From a virus (lineage: Duplodnaviria; Heunggongvirae; Uroviricota; Caudoviricetes): a stretch of 64,000 bases of DNA. Where the stretch lies: positions 1 to 64,000 of IMG/VR virus record IMGVR_UViG_3300022660_000062. One strand, written 5' to 3'. Shown here piece after piece: positions 24,813 to 58,574 of the stretch. The notes under the pieces were generated by a model that saw only the letters and a program-made list of their open reading frames with translations, was not told the origin of the DNA and searched no databases. The stretch's first letter is position 1; every line of letters begins with the position of its first letter. Both the position numbers and the translations under genes were made by a program.

Positions 24813-26312
24813 ATGTTAACTTATCTTATCCCCGCAGCGGTAGTCGTTGCCTTGCTGATTCTGTTGTTTATTACAGGTTATGTCAAGTCACCCCCTGATA
24901 CCGCTTATCTTATCAGTGGTGTTCGGAAGAAAACTGTCATTGGTAAGGCTGCTCTGAAGATTCCCTTCTTTGAGCGAATTGACAAGCTGACTCTAAAGTT
25001 GATTCCTATTGATGTGAAGACTTCAAGCACAGTTCCTACTGCAGATTACATTGACATCAGTGTTGATGCAATCGTAAACGTCAAGATTTCAAGTAAGCCT
25101 GAACTGCTTGCTCTGGCTGCTGAAAACTTCCTAAATCAGCCGATGGATTACATTGCTCGTGTTGCTAGAGAAGTGCTGGAAGGCAACATGCGTGAAATTG
25201 TTGGTCAGATGAAGTTGGAAGAGATGGTTACTGACCGTCAGCTGTTCTCAGAAAAGGTTAAGCAGAATGCTGCTCCCGATCTGGCTGCAATGGGTCTTGA
25301 AATCGTTGCATTCAATGTTCAGAATTTCGACGATCGCAACGGCGTAATTGAGAATCTGGGTGTTGACAATGTTGAGCAGATTCGTAAAAAGGCTGCTATC
25401 GCAAAGGCTGATGCTCACAAGGAAATTGCAATTGCCGAAGCAAATGCAAGTAAGGATGCAAATGATGCTCAGGTAGCATCCGATCTGGAGATTGCTCGTA
25501 AGCGGAATGAGCTTGCTTTGGAGCAGGCTGAACTTCAGAAGAAGGCTGACATCAAGTGGGCAGAAACCGAAGCTGCAAAGGGCATTCAGGCTGAGGAACA
25601 GCGTAAGATTCTTGAGATTTCTACTGCAAATGCAAATCTGGCTAAGCAGGAGAAGGAGATTGAGCTGAAAGCTCGTGAGGTTGAGATTACTGAGCGTAGA
25701 CTGGAAGCAGAAGTCAAGAAGACTGCTGATGCAAAGAAGTACGCAGCTCAGCAGGAAGCAGATGCTAAGTTGTATGCCACTCAGAAGCAAGCTGATGCAG
25801 ATCTCTTTAAGCGTCAGCGTGAAGCAGAAGCTGAGAAGTTCGAAGCAGAACAGAAGGCTGAAGCAACAAAGGCTGCATCTGATGCTCAGAAGGTTGCTAT
25901 GGAAAATGAGGCAGCAGGTATTGCAGCAAAAGGTCGTGCTGAAGCTGAAGCAATTCGAGCAAAAGCCGAAGCCGAAGCAGCTGGTATTCTGAAGAAGGCA
26001 GAAGCAATGGAACGCTATGGTGAAGCTGCAAAGATGGACATGCAGCTCCAGGCTCTCAAGGTTTACTTTGAGCAGCTTCCTGCAATGGCTCAGGCAATCG
26101 GTGAAGGCTATCAGGGTGTTGACAAGATTGTCATGATGGGATCTGATTCCAATCAGCTGGCAAACAACATCATGAATACTACCACTCAGTTGAGTGAGGG
26201 TATGGCAGCAAGCCTCGGAATTGATCTGAAGACTCTGCTGGCTGGTGTGCTGGGACACACTATCGGTAGTAAGTCAAGCTGCGACTGCGGCGGCAACTGC
26301 CACGAAAAGTAA
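24813..26312 (+). CDS. Flotillin-like protein (SPFH/band-7 domain + EA-rich coiled coil; FloT/YuaG family)
   Basis: N-terminal TM helix and SPFH domain (...YLISGVRKKTVIGKAALKIPFFERIDKLTLKLIPIDV...VDAIVNVKI...), then a long Ala/Glu/Lys-rich coiled coil. The minus-strand ORF 25248-26258 is an antisense artefact. Confidence 0.8.
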   Translation: MLTYLIPAAVVVALLILLFITGYVKSPPDTAYLISGVRKKTVIGKAALKIPFFERIDKLTLKLIPIDVKTSSTVPTADYIDISVDAIVNVKISSKPELLALAAENFLNQPMDYIARVAREVLEGNMREIVGQMKLEEMVTDRQLFSEKVKQNAAPDLAAMGLEIVAFNVQNFDDRNGVIENLGVDNVEQIRKKAAIAKADAHKEIAIAEANASKDANDAQVASDLEIARKRNELALEQAELQKKADIKWAETEAAKGIQAEEQRKILEISTANANLAKQEKEIELKAREVEITERRLEAEVKKTADAKKYAAQQEADAKLYATQKQADADLFKRQREAEAEKFEAEQKAEATKAASDAQKVAMENEAAGIAAKGRAEAEAIRAKAEAEAAGILKKAEAMERYGEAAKMDMQLQALKVYFEQLPAMAQAIGEGYQGVDKIVMMGSDSNQLANNIMNTTTQLSEGMAASLGIDLKTLLAGVLGHTIGSKSSCDCGGNCHEK

Positions 26313-32395: not shown

Positions 32396-34264
32396 GTGAG
32401 TAAGGAATATACTTCCGAATCAATTCAAGTGCTTGACGACATTGCACACATGCAATTGCGTAGAGGCATGTATATCGGTGAAGCTAATGATCCTCGTCAG
32501 CTGTTGTCTGAAGTTTTTGACAACGCGATTGATGAAGTGCAGGCAGGCTTCAGCGACGAGCTGGTAGTTACAATTGACACAACTGCAAACAAGTACAGTG
32601 TAAGAGACTTCGGTCGAGGTATTCCTCACGGCAAGAAGACTCTTGAGAATGGAACTCAGAAAGAAATTCTGGAAATTCTGATTACAAAAGCTAACAGTGG
32701 TGGTAAGTTTGATAACTCTTCTTACAACTACTCCTCTGGCTTGAATGGTCTAGGACTGACGATTACCAATGCGCTTTCAAATGAAATCCATCTTGCATCC
32801 TATCGTGATGGTAAGGTTGTAGAAGCAAGAGCTTATGGCAGTACTGTTGTGGATCTTGCTTATGAGTGCGGCAGCACTGAGCGCAATGGTACGCTGGTTG
32901 AGTTCATTCCCAATCCTAAAATGTTCCACAGTAAGAAAATTCCGATCGACTTCATTCGTGATCGTTGTCGAGTAGCAAGTGCTCTTGGATTTAGAGCACG
33001 ACTCGTTGTCGATGGTGTTGAGCAGAAAACTGATGCAAGTATGTTTGACCTCATCAAAGAAGAGAATGACAAGGTTAGCGTCTATGTTAACATTCAGCCG
33101 ATCGAAGTCATTGCGAGTACTGCAGAAAAGATGAAAGTAGCCCTGCGCTATACTTCAGAAACAAATGATCGGTACTTCGGTTATACTAATCTGTTGAGCA
33201 ACTATCTTGGTGGCACTCATGTTCAAGAGCTGTCTAAAACAATCATTGCAACTTGGAAGGAATTCATTGATAGTCACAAGAATATCAAGCCTTCCATTGA
33301 ACTTCATAACAACGACTTCCTGATTGGTCTCCGTGGCGTATGTGCAGTGTTTATTGCACATCCTGAATTCTCTTCTCAGACAAAAGAAAAGCTCGTTGTT
33401 AACAAGAAGTACTTTGAGGAATTGATGGGCTTGTTCAAGTCTCAGTTCTCTCGTTATCTTGAAGAGAATGTTCTCATCGCACAGCAGCTTATTAAGCGCT
33501 TCGAAGAGTATCGAGTTGCTCAAAATAATCTATTGTCCAGAAAAGAGATTAGTTCTTTGATCAAAGTGAACAACGATGGTGAAGATAACATCCGTAGACG
33601 ATCCGTTGTGTCAAAGTTGGTTGAATGTACTTCTCGTAAGAGAAAGAACACAGAGTTGTTTATCGTTGAGGGTGACTCTGCAAAAGGACCTTATATGTTT
33701 ACTCGTAACAGAGAACTGCAAGCTGTGCTGCCTCTGAGAGGTAAGATTCTGAATGTGACTTACAAGTCTATCAAGGATGCAATTAAGAACTCTGAAATTT
33801 GTGATATTGCAAACAGTATGGGTTGTGGTATCGGTGGCGCTTGCGATGCTAACAAGTCACGATATGAGCGAGTGATTATCTCGGCTGATGCTGACCCAGA
33901 TGGTTTGCAGATCAATTGTCTGGTTCTATCTGTGTTCATCAATCTATTCCCTGATATGGTAAAGCAAGGTCGAGTGTATGTATCTATGCCTCCTCTGTAT
34001 TGTTGGGGAGATAATCCTAAGAATTACGGTTGGTGCAACCGAGTGGAAGATATTCCTGCTGGTGTAAAGAATGTTCATCGCTTCAAGGGCTTGGGCGAAA
34101 TGAATGATGATCAGCTTGAGTACTTCTTAGTTAATCCTGAAACTAGAAACTTGATGCAGATTCAGTACCCTAGTGATGTTGAAGAGTTTAACAGAATTCT
34201 TGGAACCTCTGCTGGTAAGAATGATCTTCTGAAAGAGCTCGGAATTGTTGAGAAAGGTGAGTAA
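32396..34264 (+). CDS. Type II DNA topoisomerase ATPase/toprim subunit (GyrB-like; T4 gp39-type)
   Basis: GHKL ATPase N-terminus (LDDIAHMQLRRGMYIG, DNAIDE), transducer region, and toprim (ELFIVEGDSA, DADPDG). GTG start with AAGGAG RBS. Confidence 0.9.
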   Translation: MSKEYTSESIQVLDDIAHMQLRRGMYIGEANDPRQLLSEVFDNAIDEVQAGFSDELVVTIDTTANKYSVRDFGRGIPHGKKTLENGTQKEILEILITKANSGGKFDNSSYNYSSGLNGLGLTITNALSNEIHLASYRDGKVVEARAYGSTVVDLAYECGSTERNGTLVEFIPNPKMFHSKKIPIDFIRDRCRVASALGFRARLVVDGVEQKTDASMFDLIKEENDKVSVYVNIQPIEVIASTAEKMKVALRYTSETNDRYFGYTNLLSNYLGGTHVQELSKTIIATWKEFIDSHKNIKPSIELHNNDFLIGLRGVCAVFIAHPEFSSQTKEKLVVNKKYFEELMGLFKSQFSRYLEENVLIAQQLIKRFEEYRVAQNNLLSRKEISSLIKVNNDGEDNIRRRSVVSKLVECTSRKRKNTELFIVEGDSAKGPYMFTRNRELQAVLPLRGKILNVTYKSIKDAIKNSEICDIANSMGCGIGGACDANKSRYERVIISADADPDGLQINCLVLSVFINLFPDMVKQGRVYVSMPPLYCWGDNPKNYGWCNRVEDIPAGVKNVHRFKGLGEMNDDQLEYFLVNPETRNLMQIQYPSDVEEFNRILGTSAGKNDLLKELGIVEKGE

Positions 34265-34265
34265 G

Positions 34266-35654
34266 ATGAAAGAATTTATTTCTATGGATGCTTGTGAACT
34301 TGCAAAGACCAACTATACCGAGTATTCTCAGTATGTTGCTCAAGGTCGTAGTTATCCTTCTATCTATGATGGTGCAAAGAGTAGCTACAAGAGAGCAATC
34401 TACGGTATGTATACCAACAAGACAAGCAAGACTGTTAAGGTTGCGGAGCTGGCTGCTCATGCACTACCTTATCACCCTCATCCCACTTCCGTGGCAGGAG
34501 TCATCATTCAGCTCGGTGATGGTGGTAACAAGCTCAAGCTGATGGATACTCAAGGTAACTGGGGTAACAGTGCTCGACATATTGAAGCTTCTGCAGAGAG
34601 ATATATTGGCGGTAAACTGTCTACTCTGGCGGAACATCTACTGTGTGACTCTATTGAATACTGCAAGTTCGTTCCTGGTGAGATTGATAAGGATGAGCCT
34701 CTTGCTCTTCCTGCTCTCATTCCTCTGTGCTTTATCAATGGTAACAGTGGTATTCCTTCTGGATTGCCTACTTTGAATATTCCAACAATTGACATCATGG
34801 GAATGATTGATTACTATCTTGATATTCTTGCTCACAAGGATGTTGAGTACAAGCCGAAGAAGTATCCGAAGCCCAATCTGGAAATCAATGTGCTGTCCTC
34901 TGTTGAGGATTGGAATAATGTCTTGGAGACTGGTAAAGGAAGCATCCGCACTGCTCCTATCATGAGCATTGACGCTGCTAATGTAATCACGATTACTGGT
35001 TTACCGAAGACTAAAACAGTTGATCATGTTCGTAAGATTGTCGAGAAGGAAATCTTGCTCGACAAGATCGATATTCGAGATGAGACAGCTGAGACTATTC
35101 GTATTGTTATTGAGAAAGTTCCTCATAAGCAGTGCGATATGAAAGAACTGTTCAAGAGACTGTACACTAAATTGCAGTCCTCCGAGACTTACAACCTTGC
35201 ATTCTTCGATGAAGATAAGATCTATGTACCTTGTAGCTTCCACAAAGTCATTAGAACTAATCTTCAGTATGTCATTGACACTCAGCGCAATCGTCTAGCT
35301 AAGGAGCTGGAACAGCTGAAGATTCGCCTGCGTGTTCTGGAAATCATTGAGGACATGAAGAAAAAGAACAGTCTGAAGAGCTTGTTTGACCTGGATAGTA
35401 AGGCTGCGCTTAGTCACATCTGTGCCACATATAAATGTGATCAGGATATTGCAAGCAAGGTGTTGCAGAAGCCTATTTCTTACCTGACAAAGGAACATGG
35501 TCAGGAGTTGATTGATCTTCGTAATGATATTGAAGCAAACGAAGCCGATCAGAGTGACATCTATGAGTTCATGACTCGTAAGTACAAAGCTCTGAAGAAG
35601 GAGCTAACTCCCGTTCTTAAAAATAAGTTTGCTCCTACAACTTTCATCAAGTAA
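34266..35654 (+). CDS. Type II DNA topoisomerase breakage-reunion subunit (GyrA N-terminal-like; T4 gp52-type)
   Basis: Immediately follows the ATPase subunit. GyrA-like N-terminal domain (SYPSIYDGAKSSYKRAIYGM..., GNWGN). RBS AAAGGTGAG before the ATG at 34266. Confidence 0.8.
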   Translation: MKEFISMDACELAKTNYTEYSQYVAQGRSYPSIYDGAKSSYKRAIYGMYTNKTSKTVKVAELAAHALPYHPHPTSVAGVIIQLGDGGNKLKLMDTQGNWGNSARHIEASAERYIGGKLSTLAEHLLCDSIEYCKFVPGEIDKDEPLALPALIPLCFINGNSGIPSGLPTLNIPTIDIMGMIDYYLDILAHKDVEYKPKKYPKPNLEINVLSSVEDWNNVLETGKGSIRTAPIMSIDAANVITITGLPKTKTVDHVRKIVEKEILLDKIDIRDETAETIRIVIEKVPHKQCDMKELFKRLYTKLQSSETYNLAFFDEDKIYVPCSFHKVIRTNLQYVIDTQRNRLAKELEQLKIRLRVLEIIEDMKKKNSLKSLFDLDSKAALSHICATYKCDQDIASKVLQKPISYLTKEHGQELIDLRNDIEANEADQSDIYEFMTRKYKALKKELTPVLKNKFAPTTFIK

Positions 35655-37990: not shown

Positions 37991-39517
37991 ATGAGAGATA
38001 TATTTGTTTATGATACAAGTAAGAAGGTTCCAAAGGATGTAACACATGTTAGAGTTGCAGATGGCGTTGAGATAATTCCATTCAATGCATTCAAAAATTG
38101 CAAACATCTTGAATCAATCGAGATTCCGTCAAGTGTAAGAGCAATCGGTATAAATGCTTTTGAGGGATGTGGTAACATAACTGATGTGTATGTTACTAAC
38201 GACTCAGTATGGAACAATATGAGCTTCATGGGTGGTTGGTGTGATCCTGTTAAAGAGCGTGGAGCTAGTTTGCATATAGTTGACAAGCTAACAGATTGTG
38301 AAGTTACAGCTACACAAGATGATACAGAGGAAGAAGATGAGCTAGATGATCTTTCTTGGAGCGACATGCTTGATGAACTCGATGGTGATGAGGATTGGAT
38401 GGATTCCCTCTATCAAGAGTTTTGTGATGAAGCTTATGCTCTTGTTGAGAAAGAAGGCTTTACTGACGTGTTTACTGAGCCTTCAACACAGATGGGACGT
38501 GGTGGTGATTTCTTCTGGGCCAAGAAAAATGGCGTAAATTATCGTGGTAACTATGATTTTGAATCTGAACAAGATATGTTCTGGAATTGTTGTTATGAAG
38601 CGGATTCAAGAGAAGAAGCTATTGAACTGTGTGCAAAGAAATATGCAAGTATTATCTTGAGTTCATTGAAGCCTGTAGTTGATGATCTTGATGAAGCTGC
38701 TTTCAGTGGCGGTATGGCTGGTGACAACAGTGCTAGCGGTGGCACTATTCGTGGTAGAGGTGCTTCTACGCAGCCTGGAAAGAACAACTACTTGAACAGA
38801 ATGAAGAGCAAGAATCCTGATCTTGTTGATACTATGGTAATCAAAGTTAGTGACATCAAGCCTGGAATGATTACTCAAGCTGGTCAAGTTAAGGAAGCTG
38901 AGGCTCGTAATCATGTTAGCGGTGGCAAGAAGATGTACATCATGCACACTAATGGTTATGATGGATTCTGGGGTCTTGATGAAACAATGGATGTTATGGT
39001 TGATCCTGAGAACAAGTCAAAGCCCTTTGCTGGTGATTACAGAGCTCTGCTGAAGATGGGCTTAAAGGAATCTAAATCTATCAAAGAGAAAATAGGAGAT
39101 AATTATTCTAACAATATCGAATATTGTCCTAGTTGTGGTGAATACTTAGATGGTAGTGATATCTCCGATGAACGTGACAATTCAGTAAGGTATACTTGTT
39201 ATCATTGCGGTAACTCATTTGACCGCACTAAATACTATAATGAATCTAAATCTATTGATGAAGCTCTTGTTACTGATTACATGGACAGTGAAACACTTCA
39301 TAGAGCGATGCAACATTTGATGTTTGGAACCTTCAATGCATATAATCAAGAAGAGAACATGATTGTTAAGACTACTACAAATCATGGTGCATTTGGAGGC
39401 GTAAATCAATTACATAGATATTTCAAATTTGTACATGGTGAGGATGGATGGGAAGCATACGAAGTTTCTTCTACAGGTGATAAAGTAGGGGACGCATTCT
39501 TGATTGACAACATCTAA
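37991..39517 (+). CDS. BspA-type leucine-rich-repeat protein with acidic linker and C-terminal zinc ribbon
   Basis: BspA-like LRR (...IIPFNAFKNCKHLESIEIPSSVRAIGINAFEGCGNITDVYV...), a D/E-rich region, and CPSCG...CYHCG. Confidence 0.6.
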   Translation: MRDIFVYDTSKKVPKDVTHVRVADGVEIIPFNAFKNCKHLESIEIPSSVRAIGINAFEGCGNITDVYVTNDSVWNNMSFMGGWCDPVKERGASLHIVDKLTDCEVTATQDDTEEEDELDDLSWSDMLDELDGDEDWMDSLYQEFCDEAYALVEKEGFTDVFTEPSTQMGRGGDFFWAKKNGVNYRGNYDFESEQDMFWNCCYEADSREEAIELCAKKYASIILSSLKPVVDDLDEAAFSGGMAGDNSASGGTIRGRGASTQPGKNNYLNRMKSKNPDLVDTMVIKVSDIKPGMITQAGQVKEAEARNHVSGGKKMYIMHTNGYDGFWGLDETMDVMVDPENKSKPFAGDYRALLKMGLKESKSIKEKIGDNYSNNIEYCPSCGEYLDGSDISDERDNSVRYTCYHCGNSFDRTKYYNESKSIDEALVTDYMDSETLHRAMQHLMFGTFNAYNQEENMIVKTTTNHGAFGGVNQLHRYFKFVHGEDGWEAYEVSSTGDKVGDAFLIDNI

Positions 39518-43375: not shown

Positions 43376-43660
43376 ATGAAATCATTGATTCGGAGCATCG
43401 TTATCAAGATAGCAGTAGCAGTTATTCTCTGCACAGTGCTATCATTGGTACTAAGTGCAATCATGCCAACATTCGGCAATGATATTGCAATGGGACAGCT
43501 GGAACATGATGATGTAAGTTTCATGCAGATGGAAATGTGGAACCGAATTCAGAATGGTGTTACAACTGTTCAGTACATTATCACAGTCATTTGTGGTGTC
43601 TTAGTCGGCACCGATGTATACAAACTTATCAAAACAAGAAAGAAGGAAATTGACAAATGA
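43376..43660 (+). CDS. Small membrane protein
   Basis: ORF with GGGAGG RBS; two TM helices. Confidence 0.5.
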   Translation: MKSLIRSIVIKIAVAVILCTVLSLVLSAIMPTFGNDIAMGQLEHDDVSFMQMEMWNRIQNGVTTVQYIITVICGVLVGTDVYKLIKTRKKEIDK

Positions 43661-44607
43661 AGAAGCATATCAAGAAGTTCTTGCTGCTTGCAGTTCTGGT
43701 AGTCCTGGTGTGTTCTCTGGCTGGTTGTCGTAGACCTTATGACACTCCTGAGTTCGTGACCATTGAAGCATCTCAGACTGCATTCCTGATCCCTCTGGTA
43801 GGTGACACTACTGATCAGGGTGTATTTGAATCTGAAGAGTTGCTGTTGCAGGCAAAGGTTGCAACAAAGGAAATTCAGATTCCGCACCGTTGGGTACAGA
43901 CTGGACGCAGAGATTATACCGGTGAGTGGCGTCCGAGTGCAACTTTGATTGTTGTCGAACGTAAGCCTGTATCTCGTTCCTGGGAATCTGGTGAGTCTAC
44001 TGCAACATCTGCAAACAAAGCAATCTTCGGCGAGACTTCAGATAACATCGGCATCTATGTTGGTATGAACTGCACTGCAATGATTGAAGAAAAGGATGCA
44101 GCAAAGTTCTTGTATCGTTACAACAACACGCCTCTGGAAACGATTATCGATACTGACATCAAGAAGATGGTGGAAGATCGTTTCAATATTGAGACAGCAA
44201 AGTATACTTCTACAGAGCTCGGTGCAAAGAAGGGTGACATCATGGAAGCCGTCAAGGAGTATGTTGTCACATATTTCAAGGATTATGGCATCACGATTAC
44301 TGTGCTTGGTCTGAAGGAGGGTATCAGTTTTGAAAACCCCGCAATTCAGGAAGCTATTGATGCAAAGTTTGCTTCCGAACAAGAACTGGTAATTCAGCAG
44401 AACAAGAATGAGGCAAATCTGGCTAAGGCAGAAGCAGAGGCGAAGGCAATGATCATGCTGGCAGAAGCTGAGGCAGAAGCTAATCGTCTGCTTGCCGAAT
44501 CTTTGACTGACGAAATTCTGGCACAGCTCTACTACGAGAAGTGGGATGGTAAGCTGCCTACTTACTACGGTGGTGGCGATGAAGTTCCTGTAATTCAGGT
44601 TCCCTGA
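43657..44607 (+). CDS. SPFH/band-7 domain lipoprotein (prohibitin/HflC-like)
   Basis: Lipobox LVCSLAGC; SPFH-like core; C-terminal LAKAEAEAKAMIMLAEAEAEANRLLAESL coiled coil. Confidence 0.65.
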   Translation: MKKHIKKFLLLAVLVVLVCSLAGCRRPYDTPEFVTIEASQTAFLIPLVGDTTDQGVFESEELLLQAKVATKEIQIPHRWVQTGRRDYTGEWRPSATLIVVERKPVSRSWESGESTATSANKAIFGETSDNIGIYVGMNCTAMIEEKDAAKFLYRYNNTPLETIIDTDIKKMVEDRFNIETAKYTSTELGAKKGDIMEAVKEYVVTYFKDYGITITVLGLKEGISFENPAIQEAIDAKFASEQELVIQQNKNEANLAKAEAEAKAMIMLAEAEAEANRLLAESLTDEILAQLYYEKWDGKLPTYYGGGDEVPVIQVP

Positions 44608-45305: not shown

Positions 45306-45511
45306 TGTTAACAATCTTGAAACCTTGTCCCTTCTGTAAAGGAAAGGCAAAGCGTAAGCACGGCAAGTACAATCTTCTTGGAGCGTATGGTACTCCAGAA
45401 CAAGATAGAACTTGGTATGCTGTTTATTGCACAAAGTGTCACATAAGTCAGTGGCCTAAGACTTATCATTCAAGAGAAGAGTCGGACGCCGCTTGGAATG
45501 AACGGAGTTGA
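45305..45511 (+). CDS. Small zinc-ribbon protein
   Basis: CPFC...CTKCH; GGAGGA RBS. Confidence 0.5.
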   Translation: MLTILKPCPFCKGKAKRKHGKYNLLGAYGTPEQDRTWYAVYCTKCHISQWPKTYHSREESDAAWNERS

Positions 45512-45515
45512 TTTT

Positions 45516-46181
45516 ATGGCAAATGTTGATAAGATGTATACATATTTGAGAGGTTATCTGATTGGTGCAAACATGACTGAGTCTATCAAGGCTCTGAGTT
45601 TTGCTCGACAGCAGCATTCTCTACAAACTCGTAAGGATGGCACACCTTACATTGTTCATCCACTGTCTATGGCTTGTTATGCTGTAGCCCTTGGTTTGCG
45701 TGATGACAACATCATTGCAACTATCCTACTTCATGATGTTCCTGAGGACTGTGGTGTTCCTGTTGACTACATTCCCGTTAATAGTGTTATTCGTGACGCT
45801 GTTAAGCATATGACGATTACAAAGTTTGACACCGATGTCGATAAGATTGAAACAAAGTGTCGGTATTTCAATGAACTCCTCGAGAGTAGAGAAGCTCTTA
45901 TTTGTAAAGCTCTGGATCGGTATAACAATCTTTCCGATGCACCGTTGTCTCTTTCTCCCGATGCTGTGGCAAAGAACGTTGCTGAAACCGAAGTACTTCT
46001 GCTTCCTGTTTTGAAGTCTGCAAAAGCGATCTATGCTGATCTTGCCGATGCACTTTTCATCATGAGAACTAATCTTGAGGTCCTCGTCGGTATTTTGAAG
46101 CAACAGCACTGGGATCAGTACACTAAGTGGAAGTGCATCTATGAGCGGCAAACTTCCGTTACTTCCTTAAATAAGGAATGA
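45516..46181 (+). CDS. Small alarmone hydrolase: HD-domain (p)ppGpp pyrophosphohydrolase (SpoT/Mesh1-like)
   Basis: HD motif HSLQTRKDGTPYIVHPLSMACYAVALGLRDDNIIATILLHDVPED; AACGGAG RBS before the ATG at 45516. Confidence 0.75.
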   Translation: MANVDKMYTYLRGYLIGANMTESIKALSFARQQHSLQTRKDGTPYIVHPLSMACYAVALGLRDDNIIATILLHDVPEDCGVPVDYIPVNSVIRDAVKHMTITKFDTDVDKIETKCRYFNELLESREALICKALDRYNNLSDAPLSLSPDAVAKNVAETEVLLLPVLKSAKAIYADLADALFIMRTNLEVLVGILKQQHWDQYTKWKCIYERQTSVTSLNKE

Positions 46182-48990: not shown

Positions 48991-49339
48991 ACATAAAAAT
49001 AGTAACAGTTATTCTACTGTTACTGTAAATGGTAAGACAATTCGTGTAAAGGGAAACAACATTGCAATTATCGGTGACAAGATAATTGTTGATGGTAAAC
49101 CACTCGATGAGTCAATGGATGCTAAAAACATTACTGTTATAGTTGAAGGTAGTTGTAATCAACTTGACGCTTGTGGTAATGTAGAAGTCCACGGAGATTG
49201 CAACTATGTGGATTGCGGCGGCAACTGCACTATCAGAGGATCTGTCATAGGAGATGTTGATGCGGGTGGCGCTGTTAACTGTGGTGATGTTGGAGGCAGT
49301 ATTGACGCTGGTGGTACTGTTTGGTCTTTAAGGAGCTAA
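48977..49339 (+). CDS. Beta-helix-type repeat protein (bactofilin-like repeats?)
   Basis: Repetitive G-x-V/I-x-V-x-G-D/N pattern (NVEVHGDCNYVDCGGNCTIRGSVIGDVDAGGAVNCGDVGGSIDAGG). Confidence 0.5.
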   Translation: MFWNKHKNSNSYSTVTVNGKTIRVKGNNIAIIGDKIIVDGKPLDESMDAKNITVIVEGSCNQLDACGNVEVHGDCNYVDCGGNCTIRGSVIGDVDAGGAVNCGDVGGSIDAGGTVWSLRS

Positions 49340-49343
49340 AAAT

Positions 49344-49664
49344 ATGAAGCAAACTGAAATGACACTCGATGCAGCTCTTAAGATTGTTGATGAGTTTTGT
49401 CCCATCAAAGTTATCTTCAACAACTGCATTCTATATAACGACTACGATGATGAAATCCCTCGTGGCAAGGATGTGGATGATACTGTTATGTACGGTGAAA
49501 CTCAACCTCCTATGAAAGTTATTCCGCATCGTCTTTACATGTATCATAGCTATGTTGTAACTACAATCAAAGTTGAAATTGTGCAGCATCATCATAGTAT
49601 TGTAACTATTACTGGTCACTATGATCCGAAGGCTGCTGAAAGAGGTACTGATCATGATAGTTGA
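49344..49664 (+). CDS. Hypothetical protein
   Basis: ORF with TAAGGAG RBS. Confidence 0.5.
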   Translation: MKQTEMTLDAALKIVDEFCPIKVIFNNCILYNDYDDEIPRGKDVDDTVMYGETQPPMKVIPHRLYMYHSYVVTTIKVEIVQHHHSIVTITGHYDPKAAERGTDHDS

Positions 49665-50100
49665 TGTTCGTACTAAGCAAGTTCCTGCAAGAACTATTAC
49701 TGAGACCTGGTATATTGCTTCAGATGGCAGAGAGTTCTTGAGTCAATCTGCATGTGAGGACTGGGAACGATGGCTCGAGATTCAAGAACAGCCTGTGTTC
49801 AAAACATGTATCACAAATGTTTGGACACTCGATGATGAAGCCGCCATTCTTTACAATATCAGAAACAATGAAGATCATCAAACTTTGATGTCTACTTTCT
49901 CAGACAGACAAAAGCGTAACTTTAGTGACGAGTACATGAAATATGGCCCTGGCTGGTACATCTATTTCAGTATTGATGGTGGAGATGGTCCTGACTTCTA
50001 TCATCTGTGGCAGTACGATGCTTACTTGAAAGAGCATGAAGACGACTTCAATCGTTGGAAGAATGAGATGGCATCAAAGATGGCTTCAACTTTCAACTAA
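49654..50100 (+). CDS. Hypothetical protein
   Basis: GAAAGAGG RBS before the ATG at 49654. Confidence 0.5.
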   Translation: MIVDVRTKQVPARTITETWYIASDGREFLSQSACEDWERWLEIQEQPVFKTCITNVWTLDDEAAILYNIRNNEDHQTLMSTFSDRQKRNFSDEYMKYGPGWYIYFSIDGGDGPDFYHLWQYDAYLKEHEDDFNRWKNEMASKMASTFN

Positions 50101-50224
50101 GAATGTGAACCGAGTAGAAATCTTTATAGCTAGTTTCGTTGTAGATATGAATGCTGATCAGGAATTCTTACTTAGTTTACTGATTGGCAGATGATACAAG
50201 AAGATCCAGAATCATATTATTCCT

Positions 50225-50258
50225 GACGCTGCAGAAATGCAGCGTCATGTTTTGTTTC
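50225..50258 (+). terminator. Rho-independent terminator
   Basis: GACGCTGCAGAAATGCAGCGTC followed by ATGTTTTGTTTC. Confidence 0.6.
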
Positions 50259-50348
50259 TCCTGTTGTAAAATTATGATAGAGAATTCTTCACATTTCCGT
50301 CATTCTTGTATATAATATAGAATAGCAAACACGAAAGGAGAATAATCA

Positions 50349-51332
50349 ATGTATCTGGCTCTACCAACAAGTATCCATGTAGATACAGTAAATCCACCTA
50401 CAAGGACGAACTGCTTGTGGCTATGTACAACTCCGATACGAGTGATTCCTGTAACAGGAACATTCATCGAAGAATCTACAATGAATGCTGAATCTTTTAC
50501 TTCGTTTATTACTAATGACTCTTTTCAAGTATATGAGTTCAACACATACCCTGTTATCAAATTTTATGTTCAAACAAGTAATAGTTGGGAAGACGTTATT
50601 ACAAATAATACATACAACATCACCATGAATATGTCAGGATGCTTCGGATACTCTACCAACCCAACAGAGATTGATGAAGGCGATAGTGCAACGCTTTACT
50701 TCCAGGCAAATGCAGGGTATTCCTTGCCGACTAGTATCTATGTAAGTGGGGCGGAATATGACTGGAACTGGTCTGTCGGGGAATTGATCCTTCGTAATCC
50801 CACAGGCCCGGTGTATGTAAGTATAAGTTGTGTGGGGAATTGCTGTTTTGCGGCAGGGACACCTGTATTGATGAGTAACGGTACTTTCAAAAACATTGAA
50901 AACATTGTAGCTGGCGACATCGTTATAACATTCAATGAAGAATCCGAGGTATATGAGCCTGGAACGGTTATATACTTCTTTGTTAAGCCAAACACGCAGG
51001 ATATGGCGAAGCTGATATTTGAAGACGGCACAGAAATAACTATGAACGCATATCACCCGATGTATACGACTGACGGCTGGAAATCGCTGACAGGAAGCGG
51101 AGGTCTGCCGATCCTGACGAAGGAGGACACAATTCTTTCGACCGACAAGAAGTGGGTGAAAATATCGGACATTGTGCGGTGGTTCAGCGATGAATATATC
51201 ACAACTTACAACCTTGATGTCGAGAATAACGACAACTACTTTGTAGGAAAGACACCAGTAATGGCAAGCAATGTCGAATCCTGCTTTGTTCCTTCGCCTG
51301 GCATAAAACCTGCACCTGAGATAACAGTATGA
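50349..51332 (+). CDS. Bacterial intein-like (BIL)/Hint-domain protein with about 165-aa N-terminal domain
   Basis: Hint block A (CCFAAGTPVLMSNG...IENIVAGDIVITF) and C-terminal intein-like block (YNLDVENNDNYFVGKTPVMASN) followed by a short extension. AAAGGAG RBS. GC higher than neighbours. Confidence 0.6.
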   Translation: MYLALPTSIHVDTVNPPTRTNCLWLCTTPIRVIPVTGTFIEESTMNAESFTSFITNDSFQVYEFNTYPVIKFYVQTSNSWEDVITNNTYNITMNMSGCFGYSTNPTEIDEGDSATLYFQANAGYSLPTSIYVSGAEYDWNWSVGELILRNPTGPVYVSISCVGNCCFAAGTPVLMSNGTFKNIENIVAGDIVITFNEESEVYEPGTVIYFFVKPNTQDMAKLIFEDGTEITMNAYHPMYTTDGWKSLTGSGGLPILTKEDTILSTDKKWVKISDIVRWFSDEYITTYNLDVENNDNYFVGKTPVMASNVESCFVPSPGIKPAPEITV

Positions 51333-51745
51333 TATTCGATACATCGAATCAAGAATGGGGATATTACAAAAATATCTTGAACGCACCAGACTTGACTGTT
51401 CCCGAATACGGAGTATACGGTAGGATCGTGTATATGACTGCCGAGCAGTATATTCGTGAGTGTGCAAGGATAACGCACACTCAATACGAATCGCATATGC
51501 GAATACTGAAACATGAAAAAGCAGATAGGAATAACATCGAGTATCTGAAAACGCTGGACTTCCCTATTGCCATTCCGGTAATCAACTATTCCTGCCGGGC
51601 GCAGGAGGGCAGACACCGGGCAGTCGCATTCGCGGAACTTCACGGGGATGATGCTACCTTCCCATGTTTGGCGGTGTACTGGATCGATGAACAAAAGAAA
51701 GGCCTTAGCTTCTGGCAATGGATGCGCAAGCGGAGAAAAGAATAG
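51329..51745 (+). CDS. ParB/sulfiredoxin-like nuclease domain protein
   Basis: ParB-like catalytic motif ...CRAQEGRHRAVAFAE...; translationally coupled to the BIL gene. Confidence 0.5.
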   Translation: MIFDTSNQEWGYYKNILNAPDLTVPEYGVYGRIVYMTAEQYIRECARITHTQYESHMRILKHEKADRNNIEYLKTLDFPIAIPVINYSCRAQEGRHRAVAFAELHGDDATFPCLAVYWIDEQKKGLSFWQWMRKRRKE

Positions 51746-51805
51746 CTGGAGCATTCAACGCAATAATGAGCTGAGAGTTAGTTTGAACTAATATACAACC
51801 TGAAT

Positions 51806-51836
51806 GACGCTGTAATCTTTACAGCGTCATTTTTGT
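51806..51836 (+). terminator. Rho-independent terminator
   Basis: GACGCTGTAATCTTTACAGCGTC followed by ATTTTTG. Confidence 0.6.
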
Positions 51837-51898
51837 AGTTGATCAAAGAAGAATTTTACTATATCATATTATCGACAAACTATATAAACGGAGTAACT

Positions 51899-52150
51899 AT
51901 GAGTAAACAGAAGAAACCAACTGATGGTAAGATTTATCTTTACGGCGCACGAGATACTACTACAGGTAAGCTAGTCTCTGATATTACAAATCCTCGTCGT
52001 AAGTACTGGGACAAAGAAGGCAATGCAAGAAGTGCTATTGACTACTATAACCGTAGTTATGCAAACAGACCGCTGAAGCCCTTTGACAACAAAGGCGAAC
52101 ACGGAACTATCGAGCTTGTTAAGTTTGAGCTTGTAGAGGTGAAAGAATGA
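51899..52150 (+). CDS. Hypothetical small protein
   Basis: GGAG RBS before the ATG at 51899. Confidence 0.45.
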   Translation: MSKQKKPTDGKIYLYGARDTTTGKLVSDITNPRRKYWDKEGNARSAIDYYNRSYANRPLKPFDNKGEHGTIELVKFELVEVKE

Positions 52151-52581
52151 AACATCTGATAGGCTCAAGCTATTTCTTTTCTTGTTATGATGATTTCACT
52201 CCGCATGATGTAGATCATATTGAAATCATTGAAACAAACGAATTCAACCATAAGCGACAAATTACAGGAAGAGGTAGCTGTTTATTTCAGCTAAAGAAAA
52301 AAGATTCCTTCAAAGAGTATCTTGATTGGGACATCACTGAGTCGGTGGGAATGTGTCTTGGTAAATGGCTTATTCCTGAATTCTGTGAAGAAGTTGGTTT
52401 TACTGTAGATGATCTTCCTCAACTGTTGCCATTTATTGACCTTCTTGATCCTAAACATAGATATGAAGCAATCATCTACAACGCGTATGTTGAGAATGGC
52501 TCGCTCACTTTAACGGATAAACAGAGACTTGAGGCATACAAGAGCTACCAAGAGTCTCGTAATCTCTCTACAGTTGAATAA
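52147..52581 (+). CDS. Hypothetical protein
   Basis: ORF with GAGGTG RBS. Confidence 0.5.
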   Translation: MKHLIGSSYFFSCYDDFTPHDVDHIEIIETNEFNHKRQITGRGSCLFQLKKKDSFKEYLDWDITESVGMCLGKWLIPEFCEEVGFTVDDLPQLLPFIDLLDPKHRYEAIIYNAYVENGSLTLTDKQRLEAYKSYQESRNLSTVE

Positions 52582-52632
52582 ACTGTTAGTATACATTATA
52601 ATAACAATATAAGATAACTGGAGGTTGTTACT

Positions 52633-53757: not shown

Positions 53758-54200
53758 GAAGAGTTACAGTATACCGAAAGAAACCAACACGACAGTCTCT
53801 TGAAGTAGATCTTGTTGTTCACAAGGAGATGCTTGAACAAGCTGAAATTGAGATCTGTCGCCATAAAGACACTATCGACACGCTTCAGAAAGAACTTGTA
53901 GAAGCTCATGACAAGCTGCATCAACTGGAGAGGGCTGTTGTAACTCAATCTTGTTGTTGGATGTGTGCTAACAATCTAATGTGTCACCAAGGACGAGAGT
54001 TGCCTCAAAGTCCAGATGTTGCTTGTGGTAATTTCAAGTTCGGTTACAAAACATCAGAAAAACACAGTGACACTGTTTGTGATTACAAACATGGAAAAGT
54101 ATGTTGGGCTCAGAAGGGTGCCCCTTTGTGTGATCCGGTGTTCTGTCCAGTAAAGGAGAAACGTCCAAGTGAAAACATTAACTTCGTGGCTACAAAATGA
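53754..54200 (+). CDS. Hypothetical coiled-coil/Cys-rich protein
   Basis: ORF. Confidence 0.5.
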   Translation: MRRVTVYRKKPTRQSLEVDLVVHKEMLEQAEIEICRHKDTIDTLQKELVEAHDKLHQLERAVVTQSCCWMCANNLMCHQGRELPQSPDVACGNFKFGYKTSEKHSDTVCDYKHGKVCWAQKGAPLCDPVFCPVKEKRPSENINFVATK

Positions 54201-54432
54201 CGCAAAAGATTGTGGTTTGTGCGACCCTCCGATGAAAGCTCAAGAAGCTGTTGACTTCCTAAAGAACTATCTTCTCGGAGAGAACTGGTATGTTACAATG
54301 CCACAGAATGCAGAACAGTGTAATACTGCAATTGTAATTGAAATCTTATGCAAGTATTCTCCGAAATTCCGTAAGGAATTGAAAGAGGCAAAGAAGGAGA
54401 AGAAACGTCGTGAGAAGAATAAGCACATATAA
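54169..54432 (+). CDS. Hypothetical small protein
   Basis: ORF (GTG start). Confidence 0.4.
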   Translation: MKTLTSWLQNDAKDCGLCDPPMKAQEAVDFLKNYLLGENWYVTMPQNAEQCNTAIVIEILCKYSPKFRKELKEAKKEKKRREKNKHI

Positions 54433-55049: not shown

Positions 55050-55520
55050 ATGACAATTGAAATCCTAAACAGAGACATGATCATGTGCTGGAAGCAAGGT
55101 GACATCTTTATGAAGAATGTTCTTGCAAACATGATTGATGCAGTTAAGAAAGCAAGTATGACTGCAAAGGGTCGTGTAGAGATTACTGAGCAGTTAGTAA
55201 ATGAAACCCTACAGAAGTATCAGAAGACTGTTCAGGAACAGTATGATTCTTGCCCTGACTCTGCAGCTGATCCTGATCGTGATGCAGAGCTGAAGCAGCG
55301 TAAAGCTGATTACTTGAGAGAGCTGCGCATTGTTAAGGAGTATACTCCTCAGCTGTTAACTGATCCTGAGGAGATCAAGAAGACAATCATGTCACTTGTT
55401 GGTGACTTGCCTCTTGTTAAATCCAATAGAGGTAACATCATGAAGCTGATTGCTCCTGAGTTCAAGGGCAAGGCTGATATGAGCGTCGTCAATAAAGTTG
55501 TTGGAGAATTGCTGGCATGA
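55050..55520 (+). CDS. YqeY/GatB-like domain protein (tentative)
   Basis: Pattern ...KNVLANMIDAVKKA...EITEQLVNETLQKYQK... resembles YqeY-like helical domains. Confidence 0.45.
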   Translation: MTIEILNRDMIMCWKQGDIFMKNVLANMIDAVKKASMTAKGRVEITEQLVNETLQKYQKTVQEQYDSCPDSAADPDRDAELKQRKADYLRELRIVKEYTPQLLTDPEEIKKTIMSLVGDLPLVKSNRGNIMKLIAPEFKGKADMSVVNKVVGELLA

Positions 55521-57149: not shown

Positions 57150-58574
57150 ATGTCACAACAAACATTTAACGCGGCGATGCGATATGGTGGACTACGTAAT
57201 GGAGCTTCATACGAGTCTTGGCCTACCAATGCCGTGGCTTATCAAGGATGTTACAATGGTCTACACTACCCTAACGTTGAAGAGGCAGGCTACATAGGTG
57301 GAACTCGTTACGGTATCATTCAATTTGATGGCATAAGTGAACTGTGTAGTACAAAAAAGATTACTGCTCTTGAAATGACGATTGATTTTCCTACAGCTGG
57401 TAACAACACTAAGAAAACAATCAAATTCTGGAAGTCAAATTATACTTCAGTTGATACAAGTAAAAATCCAAGTTCCTACATTGGTGCATCACTGGGTGAC
57501 TATGCAACAACTGTTGTTGCATACAACAAGTCAGAAACTATAACTCTGAACGAGACAACAAACTCAGAGTTATTCAACTCTTTTGTTAACTACTTTTCTA
57601 CATCTGGTAATGATCTAATTTGTATCTATAATGGTGAAGATACCGACGATCTTATTGGAAAAGGTAATGAATCTACTAGTACACAGTGTTACAGCCCAAA
57701 CTATCTTCAGTTCAAAACATGCACACTAAAAGTTACTTACAAAGAAAAGTATACAGTAACTTACGTTGCTAATGGAGGCTCAGGAGCTCCTGCAGCACAA
57801 GCAAAGATAGAGGGTGAAGATTTAACTCTAAGCTCAACTGTTCCAACTTACACTGGAAGAACTTTTAAGGGCTGGGGAACTTCAGCAACTGATACAACTG
57901 TAGATTATGCAGCTGGCGGAACATATAGTACGGATGGAAACATCACACTGTATGCAATCTGGGAACTCAATGAATACACAATCTCCTACAATCGTAACGG
58001 ATATACAGTTGCTTCAGGATTTCCTAGTCCCTCCACGCAAACCAAAACTTACGGAACAGCATTAACTCTATCCTCTAGCAAACCTGTTTTAGACCCCACA
58101 CAATTGACTGCGTATACAGTCACATTGAACGCGAATGGGGGAACTTGTACATCAAGTAGTTTAACAGCAGCTCGAACAAAAACAAATACATTTACGAGCT
58201 GGAATACAAAAGCTGATGGCACTGGAGTAAACTACAATGTAGGAGCATCCTACACAGCAGAATCCAATGCAACACTATATATAAAAGCAGATAGCTCAAC
58301 TGTTACAAACAACGTTGACCTACCTACTGCAACAAAAACAGGTTACAAGTTTTTAGGCTGGGCAACTAGCCCTACAGCAATCGGTGGAACAACAGGAAGT
58401 TACACACCTACAGGAAATGTAACGTTGTACGCAATCTGGGAAGCTCAGGGTCTTGTTTATATTGACAATGGAACAACTCTTGAACCTTATTCTATCTGGA
58501 TCGACAACGGCACAAGCTGGGACCAGTACATGGCATACGTGGATAACGGCACAAGTTGGGATCCTTGTGGTTAA
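57150..58574 (+). CDS. Listeria-Bacteroides repeat (InlB B-repeat type) surface/receptor-binding-like protein
   Basis: Three repeats of the YTVTYVANGGSG...GW(G/A)TS...G(T/S)Y...N(I/V)TLYAIWE type, plus C-terminal DNGTSWD repeats. GAAGGAG RBS. Confidence 0.7.
   Translation: MSQQTFNAAMRYGGLRNGASYESWPTNAVAYQGCYNGLHYPNVEEAGYIGGTRYGIIQFDGISELCSTKKITALEMTIDFPTAGNNTKKTIKFWKSNYTSVDTSKNPSSYIGASLGDYATTVVAYNKSETITLNETTNSELFNSFVNYFSTSGNDLICIYNGEDTDDLIGKGNESTSTQCYSPNYLQFKTCTLKVTYKEKYTVTYVANGGSGAPAAQAKIEGEDLTLSSTVPTYTGRTFKGWGTSATDTTVDYAAGGTYSTDGNITLYAIWELNEYTISYNRNGYTVASGFPSPSTQTKTYGTALTLSSSKPVLDPTQLTAYTVTLNANGGTCTSSSLTAARTKTNTFTSWNTKADGTGVNYNVGASYTAESNATLYIKADSSTVTNNVDLPTATKTGYKFLGWATSPTAIGGTTGSYTPTGNVTLYAIWEAQGLVYIDNGTTLEPYSIWIDNGTSWDQYMAYVDNGTSWDPCG

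Follow-up and report, generated by a model that had tools for sequence, protein, structure and literature searches.

The region analyzed here, positions 50349-51836 of the 64,000-nt stretch taken from the viral record IMGVR_UViG_3300022660_000062 (this whole stretch is called the window below, and all the coordinates given without a contig name refer to it), carries two genes on one strand according to the list of open reading frames (ORFs). ORF1 encodes a protein with a Hint domain of the bacterial intein-like (BIL) type, and ORF2 encodes a member of an uncharacterised family with a predicted ParB/sulfiredoxin (Srx)-like fold. The pair is regarded here, with guarded confidence, as an acquired cassette residing in a jumbo phage, in which ORF1 would be a self-processing BIL-type protein and ORF2 a ParB/Srx-like protein with a nucleotide-related activity. 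The features of the locus are as follows:

50224..50257, + strand: upstream intrinsic-terminator-like hairpin, TGACGCTGCAG-AAAT-GCAGCGTCA followed by a T-run (hairpin 50224-50247)
50288..50316, + strand: candidate sigma-70-like promoter, TTCACA-17-TATAAT, based only on its 11/12 matches with the consensus
50334..50340, + strand: Shine-Dalgarno sequence AAAGGAG, 8 nt 5' of the ATG at 50349, as read from the sequence
50349..51332, + strand: ORF1, 327-aa Hint-domain protein, ATG start at 50349
50349..50606, + strand: ORF1 residues 1-86, unique N-terminal region with a native-like G+C content (GC) of 0.353, outside the block shared with contig L006
50607..50843, + strand: immunoglobulin (Ig)-like beta-sandwich repeat, residues 87-165, one copy of ~78 aa, NTYNIT..STNPTEIDEG..NPTGPVYVSIS
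50607..51736, + strand: horizontally shared block, 90% nucleotide identity to contig L006 (SRR27608055), GC 0.455
50820..51273, + strand: near-identical sub-block spanning the Hint domain, 6 mismatches in 454 nt relative to L006
50844..51272, + strand: mini-Hint (BIL-type), Cys166-Asn308, 143 aa, without an endonuclease insert
51273..51329, + strand: 19-aa C-terminal tail VESCFVPSPGIKPAPEITV (the equivalent of a C-extein), with Val309 at +1 and a Cys at +4
51329..51745, + strand: ORF2, 138 aa, uncharacterised family
51602..51619, + strand: QEGRHR motif, residues 92-97 of ORF2, at a predicted strand/helix junction
51802..51838, + strand: downstream terminator-like hairpin, 13-bp perfect stem AATGACGCTGTAA / TTACAGCGTCATT followed by a T-run (hairpin 51802-51832)

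ORF1 thus consists of an 86-aa N-terminus, a 79-aa Ig-like repeat, a 143-aa mini-Hint and a 19-aa tail. Both ORFs are as stated in a preliminary description of this DNA, including the translational coupling of the downstream one, the start of which overlaps the stop of ORF1 in the ATGA at 51329-51332. The terminators noted in the same description at 50225 and 51806 correspond to the hairpins found by scanning at 50224-50247 and 51802-51832, and the pair also has a promoter-like site of its own, which obtained the top score within 48-54 kb. The upstream hairpin is read as the terminator of the preceding operon. Both hairpins contain the stem GACGCTG...CAGCGTC followed by CAT(G/T)TTT; this stem occurs at only two sites in the 64 kb, none being expected by chance, and a 13-nt direct repeat, CAGCGTCAT(G/T)TTT, is common to the two terminator regions. 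Judging from the promoter, the ribosome binding site and the two terminators sharing a stem, ORF1 and ORF2 form a transcription unit of their own, of the "moron" type. A 277-aa antisense ORF (50634-51467, - strand) overlapping ORF1 and ORF2 is most likely spurious, since the proteins encoded on the sense strand have clear homologs.

The Pfam family matching ORF1 best was PT-HINT (PF07591), with 30.5 bits for a cut-off of 27.7 (E 4.9e-7, residues 179-301), and weaker matches were obtained with Vint, Hom_end_hint, Hint, and Intein_splicing. Among the NCBIfam models, intein_Nterm scored 28.3 (cut-off 24.5, residues 166-240), and intein_Cterm scored 14.2, slightly under its cut-off of 15.6. The closest solved sequence detected by phmmer in the PDB was the Hint domain of Tetrahymena BUBL (6tmm/6y75, E 1e-8 over 136 residues), followed by 8w20 (2e-7) and the BIL domain 2lwy of Clostridium thermocellum (9e-7). 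Alignment with the relatives identified residue 1 of the domain as Cys166, the second C of CCFAAGT; the block B histidine is His236 (codon 51054-51056), block F is TYNLDVENNDNYFVG, and the terminal asparagine is Asn308. Cys166, His236, and Asn308 are invariant among the relatives, the cysteine being present in the four closest sequences and across the subfamily. An N-terminal part of ~165 aa followed by a Hint domain starting with CCFAAGT had been proposed initially, and this is what the PT-HINT and intein_Nterm scores above the cut-offs and the assignment of Cys166 as residue 1 confirm. Searches with tblastn of ORF1 against phages gave distant Hint matches only (helicase inteins of Vibrio phages and one Ruminococcus phage protein), and Hint scans of metagenome contigs, as well as a nucleotide scan of viral contigs, gave no match.

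The position following the terminal asparagine (+1) is occupied by a non-nucleophile in all four closest sequences, Val309 in the case of ORF1; in the relatives it is mostly Ala, otherwise Lys, Gly, or Val, and once each Tyr, Thr, Pro, and Met. The 143-aa domain aligns with the Hint profile without interruption, and the protein carrying it is variable, since the N-terminal parts differ between relatives, as in A-type BILs. ORF1 departs from canonical inteins in these two respects (Val at +1, variable host protein) and also because the Hint-less relatives differ in architecture at this point. With its Cys1, terminal Asn, non-nucleophilic +1 residue, absence of endonuclease, and 19-aa tail, the domain is of the A-type BIL or PT-HINT kind, as had been suggested at first. 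According to reviews, A-type BILs cut themselves at one end or the other and can in some cases splice although a +1 nucleophile is absent (PMC7765530, PMC5874633). ORF1 is probably a self-processing BIL-type protein, judging from its conserved residues.

No Pfam family and no trafficking domain were found in residues 1-165, and no Pfam match in the 19 residues after Asn308. Homolog searches found none for residues 1-86, for which the model had a predicted local distance difference test score (pLDDT) of ~30; these residues were also considered as a degenerate copy of the repeat, which was ruled out by the lack of any match with the repeat profile. The last residue of the Ig-like repeat is Cys165, which corresponds to the -1 position of the Hint domain. 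The tail is Pro-rich (KPAPEITV), like the ends of the Hint-less relatives (..PPELVE, ..APPEL). The repeat, the Hint, and the ORF2 domain each occur only once in the window.

The QEGRHR motif of ORF2 was invariant in 10/10 close homologs (67-83% identity), as were numerous other positions. In the model of ORF2 (pLDDT 87), G94-R95-H96-R97, which conform to the Gly-x-x-Arg type of phosphate-binding motif of the ParB/Srx superfamily, lie between the predicted strand 91-93 and the helix 95-105. An exhaustive profile search recovered 328 ORF2 cluster representatives at E <=1e-3, and Y..Q-G-HR was invariant among 61 aligned remote relatives. QEGxHR is, on these alignments, a signature specific to the ORF2 family. 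The motif had been described initially as a ParB/Srx-type EGRHRAVA: the motif itself stands, at 51602-51619, and is invariant, but no link by hidden Markov models was found with Pfam ParBc, solved ParB/Srx proteins, or P1 DdrB. No match was obtained with ORF2 in Pfam (including ParBc; E up to 1), NCBIfam (E up to 0.1), PHROG, or PADLOC; Pfam and PHROG scans of the 61 remote relatives yielded no ParB family and only sporadic YunG and GNAT matches; two ORF2 profiles gave only chance-level matches with PDB sequences, none of them a ParB/Srx protein; and the ORF2 profile did not match the N-terminal domain of P1 DdrB, either with hmmsearch with its filters off or with hhalign (probability 0.3%). 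An hhalign comparison with an unverified sequence of human sulfiredoxin gave P 0.004 and a probability of 7.9%, with QEGRHR/GGCHR and FPCLAV/IPAKLV at the same positions. The weak matches of the ORF2 model in BFVD were enriched in ParB/Srx, GmrS-like, and Dnd-associated proteins. A ParB/Srx fold is rather likely for ORF2, and the protein most likely binds or hydrolyses a nucleotide. Its initial designation as a ParB-like nuclease goes further than the data, no evidence of nuclease activity having been found.

The remote relatives of ORF2 occur in several phage settings. An ORF2-like domain forms the C-terminal domain of a Phage_Mu_F minor head protein located beside an SPP1-type portal (L016), and an ORF2-like protein is encoded between the terminase and the portal (L013); other remote relatives are solo proteins in jumbo contigs. 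At positions 885-2834 of contig L017, a 649-aa protein shows three GSGNFGHxGRPGxVGGS motifs and an ORF2-like domain at its C-terminal end, and resembles a polyvalent-like protein of the kind found among virion proteins (PMC5512222). The ParB-like domains of polyvalent proteins delivered with the virion have been predicted to be DNases regulated by nucleoside triphosphates (NTPs) or NTP sensors (Iyer et al. 2017, PMC5512222). No match was obtained by tblastn with ORF2 and its remote relative P0020 against phages. The GTDB species genomes contained only one distant ORF2 relative, so that a host prophage could not be identified.

In every context recovered (L002/L003, L004, L005, and L006), the close homologs of ORF2 are located directly after the gene of an Ig-repeat protein, mostly overlapping its stop. 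In the siphophage-like contig L002/L003 (43.7 kb), there is a 25-nt gap between the repeat gene and the ORF2 homolog, and the pair closes the tail module, where the tape measure and DUF6711 genes precede it and an Amidase_3 lysin follows; in L005, the ORF2 homolog follows a 700-aa leucine-rich repeat (LRR) protein. The repeat partner is devoid of Hint in three of these contexts (L002, L004, and L005). Conversely, Hint relatives without any ORF2-like gene in the available flanks were found in L007/8, L020/21, L024, L025, and L026; L009 is uninformative on this point, since the contig stops 78 nt past the Hint gene. As ORF2 occurs after Hint-less proteins and Hint relatives occur without ORF2, it is the Ig-repeat protein, and not the Hint, that ORF2 has as its partner; the Hint is an extra which this protein may or may not carry. 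The functional couple of a Hint protein and a ParB-like protein put forward in the preliminary description is abandoned for the same reasons.

In contig L002 (7163-7975), the protein encoded upstream of the ORF2 homolog P0011 is a 270-aa protein with two repeats. Its N-terminus, MLKLDLQFFAGG, fits the Prp/L27 cleavage motif of Firmicutes, MLxx(D/N)LQ(F/L)F'A (PMC9405229), which suggests that it may be a virion protein processed by a host protease, and that the host belongs to the Firmicutes. Homing endonuclease genes were also observed: a GIY-YIG/NUMOD3 gene lies between the tape-measure and distal-tail (DUF6711) genes of L002 (2923-3792), and two GIY-YIG genes lie near the Hint gene of L025. 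PHROG assigned almost no functions to the neighboring genes in L002, L004, L006, L007, and L009.

The comparison with L006, an unrelated phage-like contig in which nothing else matches the window, shows that the locus has a composite history. The GC amounts to 0.455 in the shared block and 0.405 in the window, 0.465 in L006 and 0.471 in L002; it is 0.422 in ORF1, 0.463 in ORF2, and 0.33-0.40 in the flanks. The GC of the block is in the top 2.3% of 1130-nt windows, and four other stretches of the window are equally high. Both genes had been said to have a raised GC: their overall values do exceed those of the flanks, but the first 258 nt of ORF1 are at 0.353, and the rise is confined to 50607-51736. 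Since the stretch with the raised GC is exactly that matching L006, it is the footprint of a foreign block starting inside ORF1 at the beginning of the repeat. The mobile two-gene module postulated initially is therefore supported as far as acquisition is concerned (90% identity to L006, donor-like GC), but the unit transferred is the block and not the whole pair, and the Hint has a separate history. The best-supported account is that the cassette was imported from a higher-GC phage, a type corresponding to smaller phages, and is now under its own promoter in an accessory region of a jumbo phage.

Within the block, the divergence from L006 is strongly uneven. The Ig repeat shows 69% nucleotide identity, with a saturated synonymous divergence (dS) of ~1.6; the Hint shows 98.8%, with 346 nt perfectly identical at 50928-51273 and a dS of 0.034; the tail shows 78%, with a 6-nt indel and a nonsynonymous divergence (dN) of 0.18 exceeding the dS of 0.08; and ORF2 shows 90%, with a dS of 0.20 and a dN/dS of 0.12 denoting purifying selection. 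The 5' edge of the near-identical sub-block is located 24 nt before the Cys166 codon and the 3' edge at the Asn308/+1 junction, the first mismatch past the perfect tract falling in the +1 codon. The ORF1 repeat shares 87%, 79%, and 78% identity with its counterparts in Hint-less proteins and 66% with that of the Hint-bearing protein P0002, and the homology between the Hint-less contig L004 and the window ends at 50830 and restarts at ORF2. The Hint-coding segment has therefore been exchanged recently and independently of its flanks. The low-divergence tract may reach ~51411, in which case the tail would be a fast-changing patch. A chimeric assembly was considered as the cause of the mosaic and rejected, L006 differing on both sides of the Hint and having 5 mismatches inside it. 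A search for an "empty site" with the upstream flanking gene gave no relative in IMG/VR.

A profile built from four Hint domains recovered 188 proteins. The close members of this subfamily (~40-56% identity) are short proteins made up of a variable N-terminal part, the Hint, and a tail of 3-8 aa. All the proteins with a Cys at -1 (41/41) also have a Cys in the tail, and none of those with another residue at -1 do (0/14); the tail Cys is at +3 in 32 of them, in the motif HN followed by AxCP, and at +4 in ORF1. The association is strong (Fisher's p = 2e-13, uncorrected for shared ancestry, the non-Cys group comprising several distinct lineages), and no description of this pairing was found in a limited literature search. 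A BIL-type ligation would bring the two cysteines together as a C-x-x-C at the newly made C-terminus; another possibility is that the pair acts in the precursor, either as a redox trap or as an acyl relay. More distant members of the profile (P0226, P0235, P0243, and others) carry toxin-sized C-terminal extensions after HN-x-C.

The Hint genes of this subfamily have varied surroundings: that of L026 lies in an adhesin-like region of a phage and that of L025 in a phage replication region, encoded on the other strand, whereas L024 is a bacterial chromosome-like contig and L009 a 4.35-kb contig encoding a Rep protein. The label "tail fibre" therefore cannot be extended beyond the Ig-repeat group. 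In L024 (7848-8549), the 182-aa Hint gene P0176 lies between ligA and recJ/relA; the open frame 5' of its called start encodes most of an Ig-like repeat, and it looks like a truncated copy with a layout similar to that of ORF1. In L009 (4354 bp; 798-4276), the protein P0006 consists of a hydrophobic N-terminal segment, one Ig-like repeat, and a Hint; this contig also encodes a Rep with Rep_OBD and a superfamily-3 helicase, and is possibly a small plasmid or an element of the single-stranded DNA type. In L007 (1486-2379) and L008, the Hint protein P0003 is followed by a Stealth_CR2 protein (capsule phosphotransferase family).

As regards the phage itself, a comparison of 4 kb of the window with L001, a 223-kb JGI contig in which the same 327-aa gene is called, showed 100% identity. 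Twenty further contigs with ORF2, the longest measuring 254 kb, are listed as similar places, and the contig was found in 5 samples. A megablast search with 49300-52600 against 50,697 phage records gave no match. The window encodes the B and A subunits of topoisomerase II, and large phages of Bacillus, Listeria, and Streptococcus have A subunits with ~30% identity to the one encoded here; it is concluded that this is a novel jumbo phage, the host of which is probably Gram-positive. Other products are BspA-type LRR_5 and Flg_new (Listeria-Bacteroides repeat) proteins, YqeY, and an HD_4 protein (these and the topoisomerase subunits being encoded at 32396-35654, 37991-39517, 57150-58574, 55050-55520, and 45498-46181), as well as two SPFH/Band 7 (flotillin-like) proteins (24813-26312 and 43657-44607, + strand), which are unusual as phage cargo. 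An 87-aa protein encoded 2.4 kb downstream of the pair (54169-54432, + strand) matches the Pfam family Tad8, described as "Type II Thoeris inhibitor", with 99.7 bits (E 8e-29), which places the cassette within a run of small accessory or anti-defence genes.

By analogy with the established Hint/BIL mechanism, the processing of ORF1 might proceed as follows. The cargo would be the 86-aa N-terminus with the Ig-like repeat; repeats of this type occur terminally in virion or adhesin-type proteins of phages infecting Gram-positive bacteria. Cys166 would attack the Cys165-Cys166 bond in an N-to-S acyl shift giving a thioester, which would be either hydrolysed, freeing the ~18-kDa cargo, or captured; the cyclisation of Asn308 would then free the tail, the amine of which could rejoin the cargo via the nucleophile-independent route described for A-type BILs. 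With either outcome, the 143-aa Hint would remove itself. The Hint would be an insertion near the C-terminus of an Ig-repeat protein and not a device releasing a toxin. ORF2, as the conserved partner of this protein, would be a solo ParB/Srx-like domain with the invariant QEGxHR as a pocket motif, resembling ParB-like domains, solo or fused, that occur in phage late regions and in virion-packaged MuF or polyvalent proteins. The domain identities, the catalytic residues, the linkage pattern, the horizontal acquisition, and the mosaic history are established by the sequence comparisons, while the self-cleavage, the nucleotide-related activity of ORF2, and any role in the jumbo phage are inferences.

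Several points weigh against this interpretation. The penultimate residue is Ser307 in ORF1 and P0002, instead of the HN of P0003, P0006, and most of the subfamily, and block F has DN in ORF1 and P0002 where many relatives have HN; half of the C-terminal His-Asn motif of A-type BILs is therefore gone in the ORF1 copy, and the C-terminal cleavage may be slow or lost. The description of the cargo as virion or adhesin-type comes only from the position in L002 and from the fold, PHROG giving no function, and some members of the Hint subfamily occur in non-structural or chromosomal contexts. ORF1 also lacks the N-terminal domain present in P0002, its closest Hint-bearing relative, P0004, and others, and it could be a crippled fragment, since this domain is gone and residues 1-86 have neither a homolog nor a confident structure. 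On one alternative idea, ORF1 would be a relic in decay, in which a fortuitous start precedes the 3' portion of a fibre-type gene of foreign origin, and it would have no function in the jumbo phage; the loss of the penultimate His and the presence of P0176, a short copy of similar build, on the bacterial chromosome-like contig L024 are in line with this. However, both frames are intact, the promoter, ribosome binding site, and terminator are strong, the same gene is present on L001, with 20 further ORF2 contigs and 5 samples, ORF2 is under purifying selection, and the catalytic Cys, His, and Asn of the Hint have been kept, and we consider this idea improbable. A possibility that deserves more credit, although it too is on the unlikely side, is that the Hint may be a selfish, intein-like insertion spreading between Ig-repeat alleles without benefiting the phage, ORF2 being unrelated cargo. 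The dS of the Hint (0.034, vs. ~1.6 in the adjoining repeat and 0.20 in ORF2), the end of the near-identical block at the Asn308/+1 junction, the greater similarity of the ORF1 repeat to Hint-less alleles than to the Hint-bearing one, the interruption of the homology with L004, and the Pro-rich tail resembling the ends of the Hint-less relatives speak for this reading. On the other hand, the Hint carries no endonuclease domain, homing is not known for BILs, the stretch of low divergence may run on past the junction, and the strict covariation of Cys(-1) with the tail Cys suggests a co-adaptation with the flanks. The pattern comes from one allele pair, so that intein-like mobility and ordinary phage mosaic recombination, which explains it equally well, are indistinguishable.

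It has also to be considered whether the Hint may be a thioester-generating conjugation module, in which the Cys pair would relay or trap the acyl group and the Hint block would spread between alleles like an endonuclease-less intein. Such a module would link the Ig-like cargo covalently to the tail peptide, forming a C-terminal CxxC-type loop, to another virion protein, or to an amine or thiol of the host surface; we hold this extension of the chemistry to be doubtful. Instead of being an enzyme, ORF2 could conceivably assist the assembly of the Ig-repeat fibre tip as its cognate chaperone, in the manner of lambda Tfa or T4 gp38, as it is always directly 3' of the repeat gene, mostly overlapping its stop, and was transferred along with the 3' part of this gene. 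The fact that it is better conserved (67-83% identity) than the partner repeats (~45-87%), and that QEGxHR is kept in 328 remote relatives, many of which are fused to MuF or alone far from fibres, makes this hardly probable. The scenario to which we give least credit, and which is very improbable, is the toxin-like effector evoked in the preliminary description: a pretoxin Hint would free a toxic C-terminal part, ORF2 being either the toxin (a ParB-like DNase) or the immunity protein of a polymorphic-toxin-like module. PT-HINT is indeed the top Pfam family, the distant members of the profile do have toxin-sized extensions, and polymorphic toxins include ParB-like DNases (PMC5512222). The Hint is followed by no more than 19 residues in ORF1, however, and by 3-8 in the close subfamily, for which reason a toxin-like effector is unlikely; no PADLOC, toxin-family, or trafficking-domain match was found; and ORF2 is a separate gene which does not behave as an immunity gene, since it also follows Hint-less proteins and is absent near other Hint relatives having downstream DNA.

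The reading of ORF1 as a self-processing BIL-type protein partnered by ORF2 can be compared with known systems. ORF1 shares with A-type BIL domains (Amitai 2003; Dassa 2004), of which 2lwy is a solved example, the ~140-aa mini-Hint without endonuclease, the Cys1, block B His, C-terminal Asn, and non-nucleophilic +1 residue, and the location in a variable, non-conserved protein (PMC7765530, PMC5874633); it differs in that a Ser replaces the penultimate His, it is phage-encoded behind an Ig-like repeat, and it has a 19-aa C-flank, and its subfamily differs by the Cys at -1 paired with a Cys at ~+3. With the PT-HINT of polymorphic toxins it has in common the best Pfam score, above the gathering cut-off, and an auto-proteolytic fold, but it has no toxin domain after the Hint, no Pfam match to a trafficking domain before it, and no tied immunity-type neighbor. 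The Tetrahymena BUBL Hint (6tmm/6y75) similarly has its cargo N-terminal to a BIL-type Hint, and Chiarini et al. are said to have reported in 2021 that the thioester it generates conjugates the cargo; BUBL is a eukaryotic polyprotein with a ubiquitin-like cargo, however, and conjugation by ORF1 is hypothetical. A cargo followed by a C-terminal domain that removes itself is also found in Hedgehog proteins with their Hog domain and in phage tail spikes with Peptidase_S74 chaperone domains. These are analogies only, as ORF1 has no sterol-recognition region and the fold and chemistry of Peptidase_S74 are unrelated. The DdrB-like ParB domains (PMC5512222) and the ParB-Srx superfamily resemble ORF2 in the predicted fold and the G-x-H/x-R at a strand-helix junction, and the former share the context of the ORF2 family, solo or fused in late regions near virion genes, with MuF fusions (L002, L013, L016); no sequence relationship was detectable between ORF2 and P1 DdrB, Pfam ParBc, or solved ParB/Srx proteins.

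The chemistry of Hint domains is known; the phage version is uncharacterised, and the cysteine pair and the separately moving Hint segment are unusual. The natural roles of BIL/Hint domains outside inteins, Hedgehog proteins, and polymorphic toxins are poorly understood, and the present analysis adds a phage-borne subfamily with a "cargo + Hint + tiny tail" layout. Its signature is the strict co-occurrence of a Cys at -1 with a tail Cys, in most cases at +3, and suggests a step of the redox or acyl-relay type beyond the textbook mechanism, and the locus provides a natural case of Hint-coding DNA that is much younger than its flanks although it is devoid of endonuclease. It also brings to light a large unannotated QEGxHR family (at least 328 cluster representatives) with a predicted ParB/Srx-like fold, occurring in phage late regions and MuF fusions. 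If the self-cleavage or ligation proposed here is true, these compact 143-aa domains free of a +1 nucleophile would be possible tools for protein engineering.

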